DNA of 64,000 bases from Cystobasidiomycetes sp. EMM_F5 (lineage: Eukaryota). The notes beneath the pieces were generated by a model. That model ran no database searches, was not told the origin of the DNA, and saw nothing but the letters and a program-made list of their open reading frames with translations. Positions within the stretch are counted from its first letter, which is position 1. Each line of letters opens with the position of its first letter. The stretch spans positions 496,001-560,000 of the forward strand of contig JBPGPT010000006.1 of assembly GCA_051047955.1 (NCBI GenBank), read 5' to 3'. This document shows positions 1,308 through 38,110 of the stretch, piece by piece. The position numbers and the translations under genes were made by a program.

Positions 1308-1883
1308 CCCAGATATGTGCTTCCTGCAATGGCGCAGACTGAATCCTGCCGGAAGGATAGCAGCCAACGCTGCAGATCTCGTCGCGGCGACCGTCAAAGT
1401 CATTGAGAAGCGGCAATCCGATGACCATCGACGCACAGCTGGAGAGCAATTCAGGTGCACTCAAGAAAGCCGTCGAATCATACATTTCATCAGTTTTCGC
1501 TACTATCGACAGCGCATGCTGCTTGCTACTCTATCCGGCCTTGCCATTTCTGGCGGCCGCTGAATAAACTACGCCCATTGCAACAGGGTTTGCATTGGCT
1601 AACAAGAGAACATCATCGAGTGCAGATTGCTCACTAGAGCATCCACCTCGGTCTTGGTGTCTACGCCTCGGTGACGGGTTTCCGCAGTCCAGACACGAGA
1701 TGTCATGCTGGAAGCCAAATTGACGGCAGAGACCTCTCCAAGCAGTACTTGGCTTTAGCATATTTGTCCATGTCTCGCTACAAGACATCCGTTGAGAATG
1801 CATGTAGTGGCTCTTTTGTTTGCAGCGTTGCAGCTCTTTTACAGTACATCAGCAAATCAATGACGTTGTGCCCAGCGCCAACC

Positions 1884-3349
1884 ATGGACACTTCTGATGA
1901 CTCCGCCAGCGCGGCAGATGATTCCAAAGATGTAGCATATGCTCGCAATGTCAGTCTGTCGCTGCAATTGCAGGATGCGTGTCGTGCGGGCGACACGACA
2001 AAATGTCAAGATTTGATTCAAAAGGGCGCTGCAGCCTGGTATCAGGATGAGATTGGATGGACGGCACTGCACTACGCGGCAGGTGGGCAGACGTATTCTG
2101 ATTTGGTGTGTCCAGGCTGATTCGGAATTTGCATTGGCGTCCAACAGAGTCTCAGAGCATTGATATAGTGAAATACCTACTCAAGCATGGGGCAACGTGG
2201 AGCATCAGTATGTACTCTCTAATATACGCCTTCAACCTAGGCTGATATTCATGCTTACACAGCTGACCGCTTTGGATTCGTACGGTCATTATTCCGCTAT
2301 GACGGTGTGCGACTGATGTTGTGACTGACATCTTCGTGGTTGCAGACCGCCGGTGACGTTGCATATTCACTGAATGATGACGAAATATATCAGGCAATCA
2401 ATATGGAAGGTGTCCGAGAAGAATTACTCAAGGCCGTTCTCGAGGCTGCAGTCAATGAGGACGCTATGTCGGATGCGGGGTCAACGGACAAATCTGCTCA
2501 CGGAGATTCAGCCGACTCTGGTCATGTCGTGGAACAGCCATCTACTGCCTCCGACAATGTATTCTTGCAAAGTAAATTACGCTTTGAAGGTTCCGGTGCT
2601 GATCTGCGCTGCGTCGATGAGGAGCACAATGGTGTAATGATGGGCTGGGAGACTCCAATCATGGAGGAGACTGCGCGACTGTTGTGTCAAGCGAGGAATC
2701 CTGACGACGATGACCAGGAATTTGCAGTCCTTAATATCGGTTTCGGTCTCGGTATCGTCGACACAATGCTACAGTCGTACAAACCGACTAGGCACGTTAT
2801 CGTAGAGCCGCATCCTGATGTCATTGCTTTTGCAAAAAGCAACGGCTGGTATGACAAGCCTGGCGTGCGCATATTCGAAGGCACCTGGCAACAATACATT
2901 ATAGCATTTGAGCGCGGCGACGAGGAAGCCGAATTCGACGCCATTTACGTGCGTACAGGGTCTCTTCGTGTGAAAGAGATGCTGACCTCCAACGTACAGT
3001 ACGACACCTTTTCGGAGCAGTATGCTGACCATCGTGCATTCTTCGAGCATTTGCCCAATTTATTACGAGATGAAAGTGCATGCTTTTCATTTTTCCACGG
3101 TCTTGGCGCTACAAGTATGTCTCTTTACGAATGCTATACACACGTTGCGGAGATACACCTGCGAGAAATCGGCTTGATCACGGAGTGGCACACCGTCGGG
3201 ATGCTCGACAAGGGCGAGGTAACCTGGGACGGCATTGTTCGTAGGGTGAGTAGCATCGAAATGAAGACATCACCATACTGAGTATCCAGCAACAGTACTG
3301 GAATATACCTTGCGCTTATCGTCTCCCAATCTGCCGCTTGGAGGTCTAG
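1884..3349 (+). CDS. RMT2: Protein arginine N-methyltransferase 2 (ankyrin repeat plus SAM-dependent methyltransferase)
   Basis: GWTALHYAA ankyrin segment; GVMMGWETPIM, VLNIGFGLGIVD, IVEPHPDV, YDTFSE, FSFFHGLGA, YRLPIC; several short introns including a 17-nt microexon. Confidence 0.93.
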
Positions 3350-3518
3350 CTTTCGCCACGCAAACTATCCCCTTTGAAACAGCCGGCAGTGAAGTGCTGT
3401 CCACGTATGGCACAGCATGTTGCACGTCGCAACACCCACCTGAGCAGATCTGAGTCCTGATGGCTCTCTTTCGTCAAGGCGTGCTTTATCTCCCAAAATA
3501 ACCAGTCCATACCATAGT

Positions 3519-5018
3519 ATGGAAGACGCTTCTCACCCTCTTCTGCGTACACAGCATCGAGAGCCAACGAAAATGGATGCGAACTGCATCATTGAGCGTA
3601 TAAGCCGCTACATCCCTGGCCCCGATGACGATGACCTCGAACAGGGATCCGAGTGTGCTGCCAGTGCCGGCTTGGTGGACGAGTGCCAAGAAGACGAGGA
3701 GGATTCTGCGTCAGAAGTTTCGGAAAGCAGTGTCACCATTGAAGATGTGCTGTCTGAATACGAAGATATGCCATACGACTCTGGCCATGAAAGCGACGGC
3801 GCTAGTCTCTTGCAGGCGGATTTGAGCCGATGCAGGCACGCATCTGGGCCTTCATCAGTACTTCACGAACTCATCGCGGATCTGTCGTTTGGCAGCGAAC
3901 ACGACTCCTCAAATGCAAGCGACTGCAGCGACTCCTGGGAAACTATAGAAGATGAGGACAGCGCCGTCTACCACGGTCCATGTGTCAGCATTGGCTCACT
4001 GCACGTAAGCGATGGTAATGCGTTCTGTATCGCCGTAGGTCAAGATGAAGGCGGTCATGTGTTCAACCTCATAACTGGGCAAAATTTACATCAGTCGGAT
4101 AGCCTTTCAATGCACTATGTCACGCCACCCGCTTGGCAGAATGACATGCACGTAAATGGAGCGCGTTGGGTGATGAGCGAGTCTAATGGTTTACAGCTCG
4201 AGAGCTGGACTGCAGAGACTCCATACTTGGACGACGAGGCAGAGCAGGACGACGACATCGTCCCCGTCGCACCCGCTGACTCATTTGAGCCGGCAAGATA
4301 CCATATCTTGACTCTACCTGAAGCCTCTGCTTCCTCAACCGCTGGCATAAGTACCCACTCGCCGCAGCCTTTGCTCATTCAGGCGTGGTCTATTGAAATG
4401 GACACGTCCTCCCTAAGCCCTGTCCACGCTGCTTCAATCGAGATGGCCCAAATGCTAGATGCTGGTGTCTTCAACGACCCTGCATTCTGTATCGAGGAGA
4501 TTCACGAGTTTGAACCTAATCGCTGCTATGACTTGCCGTATTCGATGGCCACGATTTACGAAGAAGACGAAGAAGGTCTTCCTGATAGCGGTACGCTGCC
4601 ACCGCTGGAAGACATCGATGAGTACACCGATGACTGCATCGATGTTGTCCACAATATCGACAGCCACCCTGATGATGAGCAAAATCGCGAGCTCAGCCTG
4701 CCGCCTTCCGCATCTTTAGCTCCTTCTCCTGGACACTCGACCTCAGTCGCGGATGCAATGAGTCTGCTCGATCAACAGATTGACGGCCGAATCGACCAAT
4801 TGATTTACGGACCGCCAGTGGGCTTTGTGTCGGATAAAGAAGCGCTATCGATGGAATTTTTGGATGACTATCCGCTTGAAGCGATGTGCACGTACAAGGG
4901 CAACGTTTATTGTGCATCAAGGCCAGCCAACCAACACGAAAATTGGCTTGTGAACGTAAAGCCTGACTCAACTCACGATCGGATGATGGGTTGCTGGATG
5001 CAGCTAGAAAATGCTTAG
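3519..5018 (+). CDS. Acidic (D/E/S-rich), probably disordered 499-aa hypothetical protein
   Basis: Uninterrupted 1.5-kb ORF with strong D/E/S bias; no recognisable domain. Confidence 0.75.
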   Translation: MEDASHPLLRTQHREPTKMDANCIIERISRYIPGPDDDDLEQGSECAASAGLVDECQEDEEDSASEVSESSVTIEDVLSEYEDMPYDSGHESDGASLLQADLSRCRHASGPSSVLHELIADLSFGSEHDSSNASDCSDSWETIEDEDSAVYHGPCVSIGSLHVSDGNAFCIAVGQDEGGHVFNLITGQNLHQSDSLSMHYVTPPAWQNDMHVNGARWVMSESNGLQLESWTAETPYLDDEAEQDDDIVPVAPADSFEPARYHILTLPEASASSTAGISTHSPQPLLIQAWSIEMDTSSLSPVHAASIEMAQMLDAGVFNDPAFCIEEIHEFEPNRCYDLPYSMATIYEEDEEGLPDSGTLPPLEDIDEYTDDCIDVVHNIDSHPDDEQNRELSLPPSASLAPSPGHSTSVADAMSLLDQQIDGRIDQLIYGPPVGFVSDKEALSMEFLDDYPLEAMCTYKGNVYCASRPANQHENWLVNVKPDSTHDRMMGCWMQLENA

Positions 5019-5509
5019 AGTGCTCGTCCGCACTGTCGTAACTCCCTCAGGTTTTCGCGTTGACGAATTTTGCTGTTATTTCTGTCCCGAACCCGATTCA
5101 AGTCCCCATTCAATTTACTTCCATTGTCTATCTATTTTTTCAGTTGTCACGCCTTCGACCGTGGACACAACATCACTAAGCGCAATTTGGGGTCGCTATC
5201 TCCATTTTCATGTGCTTTACTTGCGACAGCTCATACACACATCACCGCCAACGCTGTTGTCACGCTCTCAAGTACAGTAATTTACCCGTTGTCTTCGCAG
5301 GATCAAAGGAATGGCGGAGTCGCTCCCACAGCAAGACCATGCGCATATTACACGGCTCAGTAAAGGCCTCCGAATTCTCACGTGTTGCTCATCGGTGTCG
5401 ACGCAGCAGCAAACCGCGTCGCTCACGTGGCATGCTCTCCCTCCTGCATCTTGAATTAAGACAGTAAACATTGACGATACCTCGATTCCGAACTATATAG
5501 CCTAGGCAA

Positions 5510-5731
5510 ATGTTCAAGTTCTTGCCATGGCTGCAACAGCGCTCAACAACCATACAAACACCATACCAACGCTTCTATCCAATTGCCGATCCACCACCCA
5601 CTTTCAATCCCGCACATGTTAGTGCGCAGAACATGCTGGGCCTACAAGCGAAGGTATCGTTCTGTCATTTGGCTTGCTGCTACCCGAATCCGGTGAGAAA
5701 CGCGCGCGTCAAAATAAGACCTGCTCTGTGA
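5510..5731 (+). CDS. Small orphan protein, H-x7-G-x7-C-x4-C family member 1 (73 aa)
   Basis: ATG in AAATG context; motif HVSAQNMLGLQAKVSFCHLACC at 5615-5680 shared with three downstream ORFs. Confidence 0.6.
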   Translation: MFKFLPWLQQRSTTIQTPYQRFYPIADPPPTFNPAHVSAQNMLGLQAKVSFCHLACCYPNPVRNARVKIRPAL

Positions 5732-6053
5732 TCTATGGATAAGTGAACATTATGGTCGATCCGAAAGTGTCTCGCCCCTCATCAGTGTGCTCTATCAAAG
5801 TCTCTCATCGCTTCGAACCGTTCTTTCCATCGCATACCGCCTCGAACTTGCCAAGAGATCCCTGTGCTTAGCGTCCTGTGAACATAATCAAAGGAGACTC
5901 AAGGACAGCATAGTGTTCGGCTCATCTCCTCGCAGCCGGAGCACTGCTTTTTGTTCGAATGGTATCCGCAAAACTATCAAACTTAAGCCATCGTCCTTCA
6001 CTCTGTCACTTTCCCTACCTGAACTGTCTGACAGCTTCACCCCTCTGGCCGTT

Positions 6054-6341
6054 ATGTCTTTCTACATTCGTCGCAGTGACAATCTGCAAAATCTCTTATT
6101 AGGCACAGCGCCAATTGCAAACTCGACACCGATAAGCAATCGAAATCAGCGTTCTTTGACACAGACCCCGCTCCGACCCGAAGATACTATCGCAGATCAG
6201 GGGCATCTCGGGGCGCAGAGGCTTTTCGGTAATCAGGGAATAGTACCCAACTGCCGCCGAGCTTGTTGCTTTCCAGTCAAAGGCCAGTTAAACCAAGGCC
6301 GACCGCAATCTAGATCACAAGCGCTTTCACGGCCATTGTAG
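6054..6341 (+). CDS. Small orphan protein, H-x7-G-x7-C-x4-C family member 2 (95 aa)
   Basis: First in-frame ATG within track ORF 5787..6341, after a pyrimidine-rich leader; motif HLGAQRLFGNQGIVPNCRRACC at 6204-6269. Confidence 0.6.
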   Translation: MSFYIRRSDNLQNLLLGTAPIANSTPISNRNQRSLTQTPLRPEDTIADQGHLGAQRLFGNQGIVPNCRRACCFPVKGQLNQGRPQSRSQALSRPL

Positions 6342-6824
6342 CCTTGCAACTTCATTATACTGCGCGGTAGTGCGCATCGTTATCTTTATACTTGACTTTG
6401 ATAATACCATAACCTTTCACTCTCACTCGAACGCGTTGCGCAGAAGGTCTTCTCCTGGGAATACCTCTGTCCAAGCTAGCTGCAGGCGAGTGTAACACCG
6501 AGATGGGCTGGCGCAGAATGCCGGTCCAGCAAGGCTGACGCCTGGTACCGTATTCACCGCCCTGACATCGCTAACACTTTCAGCAGAATCTAACTTGCGC
6601 AGTAAGGGCGCGGGCGCGCGCTCTGCTATAAGATTGAGGCTTTGACATTCTCTCTTTGCCTTCACTTCACTCGGCTTTCGCCTTCACATCCCGCATTACT
6701 CAGACGCAGCTGTTCCCTGAATACATTCACGCATACCGTCAACATATCCTATCGCAACCCTACTCTACGAAATCAATCAAGAGCGCCATCAAACGCGTGA
6801 GTCCAAGGCTCGGTGACCGTGACA

Positions 6825-7145
6825 ATGCGGATACCAGCCAATCGAACGGCGGTCAGACCGTCCCGCCTCGAGCGCTTTACGACAGCGGGTAGACAGGCGC
6901 GAAAGGAAAGAGATGCTCAAAACACCATCGTACACCAGCACAATGCCCGGATTACCGCAAATGGCGATAGCTCTTTCGTGACCGGCTGCAACCGATCCTG
7001 GTGCGCACCCGCTCGAGAAAGAGCAAGAGCTGACCACGAGAAGCGAAGACTGTCTTGGCAGAGAATGGATGCTGCCTCCAACGGCTCACTGAACTCCTTC
7101 GGGAGTTTCAAGTCCCGCCGGGAGCATGTTCAGGACAGCGGCTGA
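6825..7145 (+). CDS. Small orphan protein, H-x7-G-x7-C-x4-C family member 3 (106 aa)
   Basis: First ATG (ACAATG) downstream of a TATAAG near 6626 and a CT-rich leader; motif HNARITANGDSSFVTGCNRSWC at 6939-7004. Confidence 0.6.
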   Translation: MRIPANRTAVRPSRLERFTTAGRQARKERDAQNTIVHQHNARITANGDSSFVTGCNRSWCAPARERARADHEKRRLSWQRMDAASNGSLNSFGSFKSRREHVQDSG

Positions 7146-7700
7146 GCAAATTTTAGCGTCAGTATGCGGATACGGCTTTTGACTCCATTTGATTTGATTT
7201 GAACATAACACGTATAGAAGTCAGCCTCGCGCAGCTACTTCGTCATCCTTCATCTACTTTATGACTGCTGATATTGTACAAACGCCTTCGCGCCAGAACT
7301 GCTGAAAATGCTCATCGTTCCCTACTTTGTGGCACCTTACGATTGTGCAACACTTTGAAAACGAGGCTGACGGGTCCATGCACGCTGAGTGGGCATAGAG
7401 AGCGACTTGAAGAGTTACGCGGGCGAAAGTTGGAGTTCAGCTGAGCTCTTCACCGCTTCGACCGGACTACCGGGGCCGGCTGTCAGCCTAAATGGAAATA
7501 TCAGCTGATCTGTGAAGCTGTTGTTCGACAATAAGGCGATGCTATTTGTCAGCACACCCTTCAGCCGCATTTAGATTGCTCAATTGGTCATCATCTCTCT
7601 CTGCTACTAAAAACCCCACCCCTAGAGCAGCATACGTGGAGACCTCTCTCTCTGACTGCACAATCCGCGCATATCAACATTCTCATCAGCCCGAGTGCGC

Positions 7701-8385
7701 ATGAGTCCGTGGTGGTGGAAGTGGAGCAATACGAAGAGAGTGCCTGCAAATGAACGCAGAAGATCAGACGACGCTGGTGTGCGTACCACGCAAACCTGGA
7801 CTACAGGGGACTCTAGTAAGCTCTCCTAAAGATAGCTCGGGGAGACTGATCAGACGTTACTGACGCGCGCCTCTTGCGTTATTACACCCCACAGAATGGC
7901 AAGCTAGGAGAGATAAATACGAAAGCGCAATGAAGAATGGGGAACGTTCCGCCGCTGAAGAACGCCGGTCAGTACACTTATACGCTCGGTTGTGGTCTTG
8001 ATGATGTACGTGAAGCCTGACGTTGAAACACTTTGATCAATTCCGCGGTATACAAAGACGACAAGCCGCTTTCCAGACTTTGGTAGACCAGTCAGCTCCC
8101 GCAACAGCTGCTGCGCGAAGGGTATCGTCAGATTCACTGGCTTTTCGCGTAGCACTGATGAGATCGCAGACTGCCGCTTCGTCTCAAAGTGGACAGCAGA
8201 TCGATCGCAGGCCAAATCCGAATGCGAAGACCGCTGCCACCCGAGCCGCCGAGAACGCGCTTGCAGAGCAGCAGACGACTATCCAGACGCATCGACGAGA
8301 AATCGAAGTGCTGGGTCCAGCTGCCATCAAGTCTAGCTGCAAATTAGCTTGTTGCGAGGAAGCTAGGAGGCGGCTCTACTCGTGA
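7701..8385 (+). CDS. Small orphan protein, H-x7-G-x7-C-x4-C family member 4 (three exons, about 171 aa)
   Basis: Exons 7701-7815, 7895-7967, 8058-8385 joined by GTAAGC..CTGAC..CAG and GTCAGT..CTGAC..AAG introns give one open frame; motif HRREIEVLGPAAIKSSCKLACC at 8290-8355. Confidence 0.65.
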
Positions 8386-9009
8386 GCTTTAAACCTAGTT
8401 GTGTCGAGAAATCATCATTATTTGCTCTGAGGACGCAGAGAGCAACACTTGCATCCTTTCGAGGTGTTGTCTGCAAATCCCTCACGTGACCCTCTCTTGT
8501 TTTTCTGTGCCTGAGACATGACGAGGGGTAGAAGTTGGGTTGTTTGAATAATGGAGAGCGAAAAGGAGGAGAAAGAGAGAAACAAGGGATGCCTTCTTGA
8601 ATCAACAACACCCAATCTGACCTGTTTATCAACGCACAGACCTCAACAACCCACCCACCCCGCACGGCCCTCGACCGCTCGACTTCGCCGTCCAACCTCG
8701 ATCACATTTTTGACAACCCGCCATCCGAGCTCAGGGGAGCAGTCAAGTCGGGCTTTTGTGCCAGCACCCAATACTCAGGAGACCCACCCACACTCGTTAC
8801 GGAGGACTGCACACCCACACTCGCTCACTCACCGCTGACACTCAGTAACCCCCCCGCCAATCCATTCAACAGCTGCGGCTCACTCCCTCGACATCAAGGG
8901 ATACATTGACACCCGCAAGAGATCCGGTGCTGACTGCATTAGGAGAAATTTGGAGAGAGCAGTCTTGTTGGAGTATCGATAGACCCACTCTCGCGCCATC
9001 CATACCGCC

Positions 9010-10134
9010 ATGAAGTCTGCAACAATCATTGCAATCACCGCCGGCAGTGCAGCTGCAGTCCTGGCAGCAGACTCCCGTGGGTGGATGTGCGACTCGATCC
9101 TGACTTGCAAGCTAATACCCTACTCTGCAGCCTACATTCCCTCTGGCATCAGCAGCAAGTGCACAACCTACCTCACATCCCTCGACACCAATGCCGCCCT
9201 GGCAACTTGCAGCTCGGCCCTCCTCTCCGCCACTGCTCTCTTTGATCCGGCCTCTTCATCCGCACGGTCTGCTACAGACGCTCAGATCAAGTCTTCACTC
9301 TCTTCGCTGTGCAAGGCGCAGTGCGACAGTAGCGTCGTCCAAGCGGCACTCACGTCCTTTTCGAGCGAGTGCGCAGACGAACTGGCAGCTGGAAACGCTG
9401 TAGTAAAGTCAAACTACGACGTCCTCTACCTCCTCTCGCCCTTCACATCAGCAGTATGCACAAAGGACGACTCTGGCAACTATTGCGCTCTCGAGATTGG
9501 CAATGTGCCAGCCTCTTCTTCGTCCTCGTCTTCTGCATCGAGCACTGGATCCGGTTCGCAGCAGTTGCTCGTACAGACCTCCTCATACCAGATCCCGCGA
9601 ATCTCGCTCTCAGATCTCTACGTCTCTGTAGCAGACGCTGCTTCGGCTGCCGTCTCTCGCTTCCGTAAGCGCCAGGCAGTCTCCTCGTCAGTGAGCAGCA
9701 GTAGCAGCAAGCCGGCAACGTCTGCATCTGCGTCTGCATCTTCTGGATCGTCTTCTCCGAGCACCGTCACCTCTTCCAATGCCGTAACGCCGAATGCCAC
9801 AACCTTCCGAAGCGCAGGTCTGCCCTTCCTCCTCATCAACGCAAACATGACTTCTGCTCAACTGTGCACGAGCTGTACAAAATCCATCCTTGCAGCCTAT
9901 GTTTCGTTCGAGACTCAATTCCCCTACGCTTCTGGTTTGTCTTCGAGCCCGATGCTCAAGGACCAAATTACGCTGTGGAACTCCGTAGGTGGAGTTTGTG
10001 GATCGGGTTTCTTGAGCACCATTACAAACCAGGCGGGCGGTGCTGTCAACGCGGCTGGCAAGATTGCGGTAGGAGGCAAACAGGCAGTCGTCGCCCTCGG
10101 TGCGGCCGTCTTGGCGCTTGCTATGGCACTCTAA
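9010..10134 (+). CDS. Secreted Ser/Ala-rich, Cys-containing, putative GPI-anchored cell-surface protein
   Basis: N-terminal signal-like MKSATIIAITAGSAAAVLA; intron ~9078-9130; regularly spaced Cys; Ser tracts; hydrophobic C-terminus AVVALGAAVLALAMAL. Confidence 0.85.
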   Translation: MKSATIIAITAGSAAAVLAADSRGWMCDSILTCKLIPYSAAYIPSGISSKCTTYLTSLDTNAALATCSSALLSATALFDPASSSARSATDAQIKSSLSSLCKAQCDSSVVQAALTSFSSECADELAAGNAVVKSNYDVLYLLSPFTSAVCTKDDSGNYCALEIGNVPASSSSSSSASSTGSGSQQLLVQTSSYQIPRISLSDLYVSVADAASAAVSRFRKRQAVSSSVSSSSSKPATSASASASSGSSSPSTVTSSNAVTPNATTFRSAGLPFLLINANMTSAQLCTSCTKSILAAYVSFETQFPYASGLSSSPMLKDQITLWNSVGGVCGSGFLSTITNQAGGAVNAAGKIAVGGKQAVVALGAAVLALAMAL

Positions 10135-33206: not shown

Positions 33207-36018
33207 ATGAAGCCTACGATGATGCCGAGACGCTCTTCGGCGTCAGTCGTGGCCGTCCCAGCTGCAGCACGAAAGCTCCCGCTGAGCAGACTGCCGACGA
33301 CGACCAAGGGCGAGACTCCGATACCCAAATTCGCTGCTTGCTACGCTGCGATTTTGCAAGGGTCAGAGAAGCCAGCGCCATATTCTCCGACAGACGTCGA
33401 GCGGTTCTACTTTGATCTGTTTTGTCTGGATGTTGACCGACACCTGTTGACCGAGTTGTGTCGCGCCGTGCAAGACTCGCAGCTGACAGAAAGTGGTGTG
33501 ATCAGAGTAAAGGAACTCCGCGTCGTGATATAGTCGCATGCCGCTGATCGCGTTTCATCCGCTATAGAACAATATTCGCGAGCTATTCTTCTACGCAGTC
33601 GGATGTCTCAAAGCACCTGAGTCCGAGGGCGATGTCAGACCAAGTAATGTTCTCGAGGCGGGTCTAACTTGCCTTTAGCATGCGTTGGGCTGCAGTAACG
33701 CCTTTGGATATCAGACCCTCTCCATTGTCTTGGGAGACTTCTTGTCACGACCCTGGCCCGACCGTAGCGTCACGGCTATCCATCTGTTAGCTGGCACGCT
33801 CGACCAAGCAGATGCCGTCTTTACCGTGCATAACCTATGGCAAGGAAGATGGACTTCACTAATGTCGCTGTCACAACAGGATTTCGTCACAGCTGTGGAT
33901 GACCTCTTGCAGAGCTCCGCCCATTCAAGTGTGTATAGGTTTTACAAACGTTCTACTGTGCTCTGATGCGCGAACTGCAGCCATTGTGAAAGGCAGAGCT
34001 ATCTTCTTAGCGCTTCTGTTCATTGCAGCAATCAACCAGGGTTCCGTCAATGCATACTTTCTACGACGAGACCTTTTCAATACTATAATCAAAGTAAGCA
34101 GTACTTCCCATGAACTGTAGAATGCGCTGAGTTGCAGCGTAGCTGGTTTCTGTACCTGCGACTGCGTATCTAGCAGGCGATGGCATGCTGATGCTGGGGA
34201 TACTGGCCAACTATCACAAGTATGAGGCTCGTAACGCTATCCTTGTGCGCTTTGAAGACTTGGTCGATGATGGTATCATGAAGCGTTTGAGAGAGTCGGC
34301 CTCGGCATCCTTGCTGCTAGCGAGAGAGTAGGTCTAAAGCTGGATTGCTTATGGCTTCATCAGCCGACTTTGCCGTCGTTAGCAGAATGTTCAACGAAGC
34401 CGCGTTCGAGGCTACGCCAACTCTAGTTGAGAGCTTGACATCGCTCGTGTCGACATTCTGGTCGCTCGGGTCGCCATCGAGATCGCCAAGCAAACCAGAC
34501 AAAACACTCGTACGCAGCGACGGTAACGAGATTCGTCTAACCATGTAAGAATACTCCCGACAGAATGGGGCAATACCCGACTGAGAATTTCGGCAGACCT
34601 CCTGAAATCACTGCCTTATTATTACCCTTATATGACTTGGTAAATAGCAATAAAGCATTTTGTGCATTTCTGCTGAACGATAGGTCAGATGTTGATTCTG
34701 CTGGTGCGTACCGAGAGGCGCGCGATTAGCTCAGCCACTGATTACGTTGCATCAGAACCCGACTTTCTCGGCACTCTCGTCAGCTATTCTTCGTACTTAG
34801 CATCTCATGCATCACAAAGCACGCGAGCACGATTATATTGCCGACTGGCGTTTGCTGTCGTTGCTATCCTGGTCGAAGAAGGCCCGCAAGTCCTCCTGTC
34901 CACGCAGTATGCCTGTGACGTCCGACTCTGTCGACAAGTAGGTTCCGTCTCTCCCTATTCTTATCACATCTGAATAGTACTCTTTTATGCTCAGCGACAG
35001 CCACTACTTTCACCCAGCAGCGATACTAAGCGACCATGTGTATTGGGCATTCTCGACTGTATTACGCTCTTTCTGCGGTGTAATCTTGCAAGAAAGCAAT
35101 TCGATAGCGAATCTTATCTGTGAGTTATGCCAATACGCCGGTCAGGTATGATTCCGCTGACTTGTACTCCGTCTCAGACTGGTGTTGCAGATAGTACATA
35201 AAATAATGCATCAGCTTAAAAGCACGCGCGTACGATTAAGTAAGTAAGTAAATTATAAAGCCGGGTGACAAACATGCTCAATCATCAGGTAAACCAGATT
35301 ACGATTGGTCACATCTCTTACAAGCCTTGTTGGCGTTAGCGCGGTTTCTTCAATCCCGGCAGGCAGAACTCTGCGATCTCCCTTCGATGGAGGAGCTCAT
35401 CAACCAGCTGATATTGACACTAGATTTCGGCATCGTATGGGCAGATGTTCTTCAGCCCGATGCAGACGCCATCGCGCAACAGCTGTATGAGGTTTTGCGA
35501 GCAGATGAGTACCTGACGAAACTCGGAAAAATTGCGAATCCTGCTATTCCTACAACACCCCGACTACCCTCGCCACAATTTGGAACTCCTCGACGCATTA
35601 GCATGAGCGGCTCTCTTACACCGAAAAGTCCCACGCTGGGATCCATGCCATGTCCATCGCCGCGGCTGGCACCAGAAATGTCGGGCCCTTCCGCTCAAAG
35701 TGTCCGCAATCTAGCTGTCATCAAGTCGCATTTTGGTACACAGTTGGACAACTACCAGGAGAGACATGGGATCACTCATCTTGACGAGGATCAAGTCATG
35801 AGTATCATCAAGAGCTCCATGGACGGTCTCGACTTGCGCGAGAGCATAGCCCTGGAAGACGCAGGCATGCGGTAAGCGTGTTGTATAGATGGCCCATTCA
35901 TTTCCAGCTGATATACATCAACAGGAGGTACTCCGAATCGGAGCACGAGGGCTTTTTCAGCGAACTTGTAGAGACTGTTGCACGAGACGTTCTGATGATG
36001 ACTCGACCCGCAATATGA
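33207..36018 (+). CDS. Armadillo-like helical protein (ARMH3/C10orf76, DUF1741-like)
   Basis: Many small exons: NAYFLRRDLF, LGILANYHKYEARN, LLLPLYDLV, YSSYLASHA, LYCRLAF, VRLCRQR, LYEVLR. Confidence 0.75.
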
Positions 36019-36177
36019 AATTCTCCATCAAGATCAAGGCTTGCACTTGTTCATGTATGGCCAATGCCGTGCTGAGACAGAACAGACGGTCGCAGCCCAT
36101 CGTAGCACAAGCCCGCACGAGCGCCATCAGCATAATCCTGAAATGCAAAGCCAAGCACCTTTGGATCTGCAGGCAAA

Positions 36178-38110
36178 TCAGCTTTGATCTAGCCAAACAG
36201 CTAATTGCGACCCCCTACATAACTCTCTGGCGGTCCATTCTGATTCGTCCTCGTCCGATTCGTACATTGGATCGTCTCGCAGTTTTTGCCAGGCGACTTG
36301 AGACCCGTTACGACAGGACAAAGTATTAGATATACAGTCTCTCGAGCACAAGCAATCGACGTACGATGAAGGAGAGAAGTCGCATGATGCGGACTGGCTT
36401 CCTCCGCTGCCTGCCACTGCTTGCGCACTGCATACAAGCGTAGACCGCATTAATGTGACAAACAAACCCAACTTTCAAAGCGGCATAACTCACATTCTAC
36501 GTCAAGAGCTGTGACACCCGCACTCGTTAGCCGTGGGAATGGCGGTAGTTCTGGCACCACCTGCGCTGCTGCCATTTCCGGAGCTGGAAGAACTGGAGTC
36601 GTTGCAACCACAGATGTAGGACTACGGCTACGGGCATCATCATTCAAAGTGAAGGTGCTCGGCGCCGGGGACGACATGCGAGACTCGACTTTGACTTTTG
36701 CCCTGACTCTTTTGGGCAAGCTGCCTGGTACCAACAAACCACTTGTTGTGGATGGGTTTCTGTCCAAAAGCGCCGGACTAGCTCCACCTGTGACTCAGGG
36801 TCAAATTTGCACCATTCTATGGCGATTGATATACCTTTGGCATTGGAGCTGCTAGCAGCCAAACTTTCCTCGGCTCTGTATTTTTCGAGGAAATCCTCGC
36901 GAAGAATCTTCATGCGAATACCGAAAGCTAGCTCCTCGGCCGTGTCTGCATTTTCGGTCGAGCAGTCGGTCCGATCCAATACTAGAAGCTGACTCGCTGA
37001 CAACTTGTTTAGACCGTCTGCAAAATCAGCAGCGGCGAGTTCGGGTTGTTCCAGGAAGCGGTGTACGAGGTACAAAAAAGCTTGGCTACGCAACCGACTT
37101 GGAATGGATGCGGCATGACTGACAAGGAATCAAGGTCAATGTACGCTGCAAGTCATGGCTCAAGAGGACACGACGTACTTGGCGGGCAGGAATAGATCGT
37201 GAAGGGTGTAGCCTTCGGGGAAATACTTGGTGGTCAAGCGCTGCGAGCAGATGTCAGCGGCATGACACTGATGTTAGACCATTGACTACGTACAATATGT
37301 TGCGTAAACATCAAGAAAAGTAATTGGACGGCACAAGTGGGAGGTTGCCACCCTAGCTCGATCTGTTTCGTCGTCCTTTAGCAACGTAGAGTGTCTTCGA
37401 CATCACCCTCTCACTCTGCGTTGTAGAACCTGTTCGAGAGAATCGGGAAGGTTGTTTTCCTCCAAGGGTAGGCAACAGCCTTTCAGTTGTGCCTTCATTC
37501 GCGGCGCATCCTGCAGATTCCGACTGGTGAAATCGTCTAGTTGCATTGAAGGTATGGAATGGTACGTTCGCAAGACAGTCTTCATCTCTGGATAGACTGT
37601 AGACGCGCATCCAGCGGCCGTTAGTAGGCGACCCACATCAAGCGTGACATGCACGCACATGCTAACGTAGTATTCATCCGCCCAATATTGATCAACAGAC
37701 ACAGTTTTGCAAAACTGACGGCATACTCTGTACTTTCGCCCATCTTCTCTTTTAGGTTCTTTGTAGCCTTTGTACTGTTGCTCAAACAGTCGAGATATAG
37801 CTCTGCGAATGACCATGTTCGGTCGGTGGGAAAGAGCGGGATCGTTGCATCCGTATAAGGCGGCGGAGTGAAGCGATAGTGTACATCGCTGAATATGTCG
37901 TTCAAGAGATCAGCCTGCAAATCCCAGCGCAGAATCGGGTCTCCGTCCCTTGGCTTTAGGTTCTGTTTTGCAGCGTTAGGATTGGTCGCCTTGCGCAGCA
38001 GATGGAGCCCTTTTAACGAGACTTACCCAGAGGGGGCCTCCTGGCATGTTCGTAGTAGCAGAAGTCGTAGTTTCCCCGTCGCCCTCTGCCTTTCGTTTAC
38101 GAGCGGGCAT
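36178..38110 (-). CDS. IES1: INO80 complex subunit 1
   Basis: DGDPILRWDLQADLL, FAKLCLLINIGRMNTTL, YPEMKTVLRTYHSIPS, LQDAPRMKAQLKG, QAFLYLVHRFLE. 3' end uncertain (may extend to ~36051 through one more intron). Confidence 0.85.

Follow-up and report, generated by a model that had tools for sequence, protein, structure and literature searches.

Small fungal open reading frames (ORFs) are rarely called as proteins. Among the described systems closest to the locus considered here, the mig2 cluster of Ustilago maydis is an example of tandem small cysteine-containing secreted proteins in basidiomycetes, and the lipopeptide pheromone precursors of basidiomycetes are encoded by small ORFs that are often multicopy and carry an essential cysteine near the C-terminus. 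In addition, small His/Cys zinc knuckles and metallothioneins are short metal-binding modules, and fungal precursor loci for ribosomally synthesized and post-translationally modified peptides (RiPPs) include MSDIN with prolyl oligopeptidase and dikaritins with DUF3328. The present locus was found in Cystobasidiomycetes sp. EMM_F5, in positions 496,001 to 560,000 of contig JBPGPT010000006.1; this whole stretch of 64,000 nucleotides (nt) is called the window. Four short ORFs on its + strand, numbered o1 to o4, share the peptide pattern H-x7-G-x7-C-x4-C, and the array is located between a 524-codon ORF (3444-5018, ending at 5018) and a DUF7729 gene starting at 9010.

The favoured reading, to which a probability of about 0.5 is given, is that the array consists of small protein-coding units that form an orphan tandem family with saturated silent sites, kept by selection on a C-terminal module, H-x7-G-x7-C-x2-A-C-C; the units would now encode functional microproteins or else have died recently. 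A small protein-coding unit would have been duplicated in tandem long ago within the gap 5019-9009, and o1, o2 and o4 appear to have retained open frames of 73-95 codons, with basic, probably disordered predicted products and a conserved C-terminal module that may be written as [QT]-T-x-Q-T ... H-x7-G-x7-C-x2-A-C-C. The diverged o3 and a perhaps decayed further copy, c0, would then fit a birth-and-death pattern. Under this reading, o1-o4 would be genes of a lineage-restricted (orphan) family that are translated now or were so until recently.

Motif Sites and Homology within the Array

The H-x7-G-x7-C-x4-C pattern has exactly four matches across the six frames of the window, all on the + strand. 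Translation of the + strand and the six-frame pattern scan bear out the four motif peptides that a preliminary description of this DNA had placed at 5615 (o1), 6204 (o2), 6939 (o3) and 8290 (o4), together with the invariant H1, G9, C17 and C22; position 20 reads A/A/S/A and position 21 reads C/C/W/C. The synonymous codons said to differ among the sites (CAT/CAC, GGC/GGT, TGT/TGC) are likewise present in the + strand DNA. The sites are held by four separate stop-to-stop ORFs (5501-5731, 5718-6341, 6801-7145 and 8014-8385), and in every one an in-frame ATG opens an ORF, of 73, 95, 106 and 75 amino acids (aa) respectively; the products have isoelectric points (pI) of 9.7-11.6 and 2-3 cysteines apiece. 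The ATG-to-stop ORF o1 (5510..5731, +; 73 aa, pI 10.1) carries the motif HVSAQNMLGLQAKVSFCHLACC at 5615-5680, with a conserved stretch at 5531-5728. In o2 (6054..6341, +; 95 aa, pI 11.4), the motif lies at 6204-6269 and the conserved stretch at 6141-6338, and this ATG-to-stop ORF is nested within a 207-codon stop-to-stop frame (5718-6341) whose first 112 codons are without ATG. The ATG-to-stop ORF o4 (8158..8385, +; 75 aa, pI 9.7) lies within the stop-to-stop frame 8014-8385 and has its motif at 8290-8355.

A pattern noticed after the fact in translated non-coding DNA might arise by chance, and the four invariant columns by themselves are weak, marginal evidence against such an origin. All four-column patterns within 22 residues that recur on one strand four times within 3 kb were surveyed, and the real window contains 4,640 of them. 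The rarest was H/G/C/C, with a site probability of 2.6e-6, but it only heads a smooth distribution in which the next values are 3.2e-6 and 3.9e-6. The expectation that the pattern would not arise as often in shuffled sequence held by a small margin: the rarest pattern in 15 dinucleotide shuffles had a probability of 3.2e-6 to 7.7e-6, so that none of the 15 attained 2.6e-6, although the nearest came close. Moreover, an analytic count gives about 30 quartets and about 1.3 trios with at least equally informative invariant sets expected per window, which speaks for chance. The signal is carried by the 18 non-invariant columns, for which the sum-of-pairs BLOSUM62 score over the four sites is +13 versus a null of -98 (standard deviation (sd) 24; P 7e-5).

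The three members o1, o2 and o4 stand out when they are scored jointly. A triple scan, in which same-strand 22-mer pairs within 3 kb were completed by the best third site, gave o1/o2/o4 a joint score of 133, as against maxima of 67 to 103 in whole-window shuffles (0/70 at 133, a 30-point margin); among unrelated triples of the unshuffled window, the top score was 91. For the o1-o2 pair taken by itself, the score of 54 was attained in 2 of the 70 shuffles, as chance would allow. Tests independent of the scoring model point the same way. When o1, o2 or o4 was used as the query against about 128,000 six-frame 22-mers, the other two were the top two matches each time, so that the best matches are reciprocal. 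Two-member profiles were also run against the 1,982 six-frame pieces of at least 20 residues, where unrelated pieces begin at E ~0.3, as they should in a calibrated search. The best non-self match was o4 for the o1+o2 profile (E 0.0028), o2 for the o1+o4 profile (E 3.2e-6) and o1 for the o2+o4 profile (E 1.4e-10); within the window, each pair thereby recovered the third member.

The likeness also extends outside the 22-mer, into residues that had no role in the definition of the pattern. The alignment of o1 with o2 (42% identity over 50 columns, 33.1 bits) is the top pair in the six-frame all-against-all comparison and takes in QRSxTxQTP, IAD, and Y/F-P after ACC, and both ORFs terminate in RP(A)L-stop. 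In addition, TTIQT stands directly upstream of the His in o4 and is common to o1 and o4 across an 18-codon gap. The flanks had earlier been taken as unrelated-looking, which is wrong in view of these shared QRSxTxQTP...IAD, RP(A)L-stop and TTIQT segments. Judging from these comparisons, o1, o2 and o4 are real homologues, and a chance origin of this trio is considered very unlikely. The family of four proposed at first is therefore solid for o1, o2 and o4, whereas o3 is borderline and c0 is about as good a candidate as o3.

Codon-Structured Similarity

The units of the array are co-oriented and roughly regularly spaced, the motif-to-motif distances being 726 (c0-o1), 589, 735 and 1351 bases, as might be expected of a repeated DNA or RNA element (a regulatory repeat, a non-coding RNA or a transposon relic) that mimics a peptide motif. 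However, no direct DNA repeat was detected among the copies with blastn at 7-base words or with a repeat finder. The 66-base blocks share 36 bases between o1 and o2, 34 between o1 and o4, and 30 between o2 and o4, compared with 16.5 (sd 3.6) for random pairs, and the conservation has a period of three. Matches at the first, second and third codon positions, of 22 each, are 14/15/7 for o1-o2, 13/14/7 for o1-o4 and 11/11/8 for o2-o4. In ungapped 22-codon counts made in the top-scoring frame, the third position is the least matched in 10 of 10 pairs, c0 included, and stays near random with 5-8 matches of 22.

The frame of the likeness is equally specific. In + frame 0 the trio reaches 133, whereas the four shifted + frames range from -8 to 9. 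A score of 97, which is shadow-like, is obtained in the antisense frame with the same wobble position, but stops interrupt that frame in o1 and o2. The likeness moreover stays in frame across gaps of 1, 6 and 18 codons. No RNA counterpart was found for the copies, since Rfam gave nothing above noise (best E 0.86), the tRNA scan gave none, and no consensus RNA fold was obtained (-0.12 kcal/mol). There is also no transposon domain among the 63 gap ORFs of at least 40 aa. A repeated DNA or RNA element is on these grounds regarded as very improbable.

The paralogues thus combine one open frame each, a third position that is the least conserved, and gaps in frame. Saturated silent sites, retention at the first and second positions and in-frame gaps together imply long purifying selection on the peptide, and the similarity is, as far as these alignments go, codon-structured and shaped by such selection. 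The preliminary description had argued for selection on protein in DNA that is otherwise unalike and for an old tandem family; both points are upheld, with only + frame 0 scoring, third positions near random and no DNA repeat detectable.

Borderline Members and Look-Alikes

The third ORF, o3 (6825..7145, +; ATG-to-stop, 106 aa, pI 11.6), with the motif HNARITANGDSSFVTGCNRSWC at 6939-7004, is a borderline, diverged member. Its score versus the trio is 72, with background up to 62, and its E-values are 0.1 with the trio profile and 0.023 with the o2+o4 profile. It aligns ungapped to o4 over 48 aa (27.7 bits) and is without one cysteine, with W at position 21. When o3 was the sole query, in the 22-mer scan and as a profile, no family member rose above background, which is in line with a chance match. 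An imperfect palindrome at 6970-7024 overlaps the end of the o3 motif; its 20-base arms are 80% complementary and separated by 15 bases (blastn gives 72% over 58 bases), and it is without a counterpart in the other copies.

A possible fifth, decayed copy, c0 (4880..4963, +), has HVQGQRLLCIKASQPTRKLACE at 4889-4954 in a 28-codon open piece between stops. It scores 73 versus the trio and gives the best non-family profile match (E 0.017), and it has 28-30 of 66 bases in common with o1, o2 and o4, lowest at the third codon position. The piece overlaps the 3' end of the 524-codon ORF 3444-5018, in a frame other than that of the ORF; because this host ORF still looks coding-like in its own frame there, c0 could have arisen by chance. 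If c0 is real, the end of the 524-codon gene overlaps an old family copy. The matches o3 and c0 are the two best non-family matches of the window, both on the + strand and in or beside the array, and they are probably, though not provably, diverged or decayed copies of the family.

In the o2 frame, upstream of the o2 ATG, o2a (5853..5900, +) would be a weak partial copy of the C-terminal part of the motif, with KRSLCLASCEHNQRRL versus KSSCKLACCEEARRRL in o4 (56% identity over 16 aa, 19.2 bits); the o4-only profile gives it E 0.12, which is not significant alone. Taken individually, o3, c0 and o2a are far more readily explained by chance than the trio is, and for each of them chance is a live option. 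No further copy was found in the 1351-base o3-o4 interval by trio scoring, 22-mer queries or profiles.

Elsewhere in the window, the 22-mer HQQEVLRIGARGLFQRTCRDCC at 35916-35981 (+) was tried as a member and set aside as probably due to chance, its score versus the family being 62-74 with no profile support. It reads H-x7-G followed by C-R-D-C-C, with the first cysteine shifted by one, and it belongs to an ORF at 35889-36326, a site just downstream of an ORF with an ARMH3_C domain.

Coding Potential, Database Relatives and the State of the ORFs

The favoured reading of an orphan tandem family kept by selection has several results weighing against it. Codon log-odds were modelled from 21 clear ORFs of the window, with 298 random ORFs of 60-130 codons as the null; by this measure o1-o4 score -0.02 to 0.05 bits per codon, as compared with -0.005 (sd 0.086) for the random ORFs and 0.02-0.18 for the training genes. 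The ESM recognition score for o2, 1098, is one that shuffled sequences typically receive. AlphaFold2, run on the four-row alignment, gave a model with one short helix at residues 27-36, a predicted local distance difference test (pLDDT) value of 55.1 and a predicted template modelling (pTM) score of 0.24, values too low for a site to be read from it. When 1.84 billion cluster representatives were searched with a four-sequence profile, the only protein returned was P0001, which is o2 itself; the exact ATG ORFs o1-o4 are absent from the protein collection containing the deposited annotation. The contrast between codon positions is in addition somewhat inflated, the frame having been selected for its top score. 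As for the proposed chemistry of the module, adjacent cysteines are not known as a typical zinc site.

Other searches agree in finding no relatives. The match P0001 is o2 from a GTG start, a singleton of 184 aa, and word-based searches at near and longer lengths returned P0001 only; the best ESM Atlas look-alike for o2 scored 0.80, which offers no lead. Pfam gave nothing on o1-o3 and only sub-threshold noise on o4 (best AlgF, E 0.0028, 17.6 bits versus a cut-off of 34.4), and NCBIfam and PDB profile searches of the family gave nothing better than E 2.4. No homologue is detectable outside the lineage, as is expected of an orphan, with the nearest relative for which there are data only 52% identical in the neighbouring gene. 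The deposited annotation was made by ab initio prediction from DNA reads without RNA data, and there is no sister genome (PMC12697161); because of this, missing annotation and missing homologues are weak evidence.

The copies might also be dead relics of an anciently duplicated small coding gene, no longer expressed or selected, whose open frames are a remnant before decay. Codon and amino-acid usage in o1-o4 is unlike that of the window's typical genes, the codon usage being like that of random ORFs, and the sequences are non-protein-like to ESM and AlphaFold; c0 is seemingly decayed, o3 has lost one cysteine and most of its similarity, and the array is without annotation, all of which would suit such relics. 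On the other hand, third positions are saturated whereas the first and second positions are ~60-65% identical in o1-o2 and o1-o4, which implies selection for most of the time since duplication, and o1, o2 and o4 remain open from the ATG through the conserved block to the stop, with the same end in o1 and o2. Relics of this kind are considered somewhat unlikely.

Alternatively, the copies might belong, as exons or domains, to a larger unannotated gene with introns or to several such genes. The homology begins abruptly just after CAG in 3/3 copies, the donor-like GTGAGA and GTGAGC follow the motif in o1 and o4, and the long ATG-less open frame around o2 would be in keeping with an exon. However, the one documented local intron is 54 nt long, whereas the copies are spaced by 589-1351 nt and occupy three different frames, and a stop follows each copy within 12-46 codons. 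No gene-like ORF was found by codon log-odds on either strand of the gap 5019-9009, and none of its 63 ORFs of at least 40 aa (the 4 family ORFs and 59 others) has a significant Pfam match. Inspection by eye revealed no convincing in-frame splice junctions joining the ORFs. The array is therefore quite unlikely to consist of exons of larger genes.

Under the favoured reading of a selected orphan family, we infer that the His and three Cys might act together, most likely as metal-ion ligands (Zn or Cu), with Cys acylation or disulfides as alternatives. It is further possible, and is put forward tentatively, that the units are working genes. They would then form a new family of ~75-95-residue basic microproteins, whose module binds metal or anchors the product by acylation, selected in a Microsporomycetaceae-like Cystobasidiomycetes lineage without another sequenced genome and subject to tandem birth and death. 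If expressed, the array would exemplify neatly how an unannotated microprotein family can be recognised from a single genome, the giveaway being that old tandem paralogues resemble one another in a codon-structured way. It would also illustrate what escapes ab initio annotation in compact fungal genomes and would provide a new short His/Cys motif as a metal-binding candidate. If unexpressed, it would be the record of a small gene family decaying. The importance is local either way, without a link to a known pathway or phenotype.

Genomic Context

The genome comprises 18.6 Mb, of which 10.7 Mb (~58%) is coding (PMC12697161), and the gap 5019-9009 is 4 kb without a Pfam-recognisable or gene-like ORF. 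The + strand is C-rich over 5001-7000, with GC skews of -0.19 and -0.15. Between the array and the upstream neighbour sits the 524-codon ORF; the RMT2 label that had been given to that neighbour was not confirmed by Pfam or PDB sequences. In the region so labelled (1638-3278, +), the ORF 1638-2117 has an ankyrin repeat, but the ORF 2325-3278 had no Pfam match with an E-value of 0.05 or below, nor any PDB sequence match at 0.01 or below.

The downstream gene, with its DUF7729 domain, matches NCBI protein EMMF5_001911 (P0002) from Cystobasidiomycetes sp. EMM_F5 residue for residue, apart from a gap of 18 residues. This gap corresponds to a 54-base intron at 9076-9129 (+), with the ends GTGGGT...CTGCAG, which the 383-codon ORF reads through in frame; the next relative of the protein is 52% identical. 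A Pfam scan of the 50 window ORFs of at least 140 aa recorded housekeeping families only (URO-D, TCP-1, Na/H exchanger, pseudouridine synthase and alike), in genes with introns.

Comparison with Known Systems

As with clusters of the mig2 type, the array is co-oriented and in tandem, its small ORFs diverge fast, and a few cysteine positions are kept near the C-terminus. It differs from them in that o1, o3 and o4 have no N-terminus resembling a signal peptide, each ORF has only 2-3 cysteines, and no sequence similarity was found. A hydropathy heuristic for signal peptides (best 10 residues) gave 0.17 for o1, -0.06 for o3 and -0.52 for o4, with 1.33 for o2, which is ambiguous, and 1.88 for the DUF7729 protein as a control. 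By this heuristic, the claimed lack of a signal peptide holds for o1, o3 and o4 but is ambiguous for o2, and a secreted effector cluster was rejected on the same test, with the same ambiguity for o2.

Pheromone precursors resemble the array in being small ORFs in several copies with a cysteine near the C-terminus. They were rejected, as the ORFs end in RPAL, SRPL, QDSG and RLYS, without a CaaX box. A STE3 receptor domain is also lacking among the 50 window ORFs of at least 140 aa scanned with Pfam. In the same scan, no genes for RiPP tailoring enzymes were recorded nearby, although introns could hide short exons.

Zinc knuckles and metallothioneins share with the array a short module, here with one His and three Cys, that could bind metal. 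The array differs from them in being without CxxC, CxC or CCHC spacings and in its cysteine content of ~2-4%. A metallothionein or known zinc knuckle was rejected, since Pfam yielded neither a zinc-finger nor a metallothionein family at an E-value of 1 or less.

The array fits best among orphan or de novo small fungal genes, a kind that has been reviewed (PMC12684174). Like such genes, it has short ORFs, basic disordered-looking products and non-coding-like codon usage, is without a homologue outside the lineage and is missed by ab initio annotation. Expression is part of most definitions of such genes, whereas the members of the array are candidates predicted from sequence. The array further differs in that its three paralogues have saturated silent sites yet kept their motif, which would indicate selection over a long period and not a proto-gene of very recent origin. 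The family is new, and its kind, that of taxonomically restricted small genes expanded in tandem, is already known.

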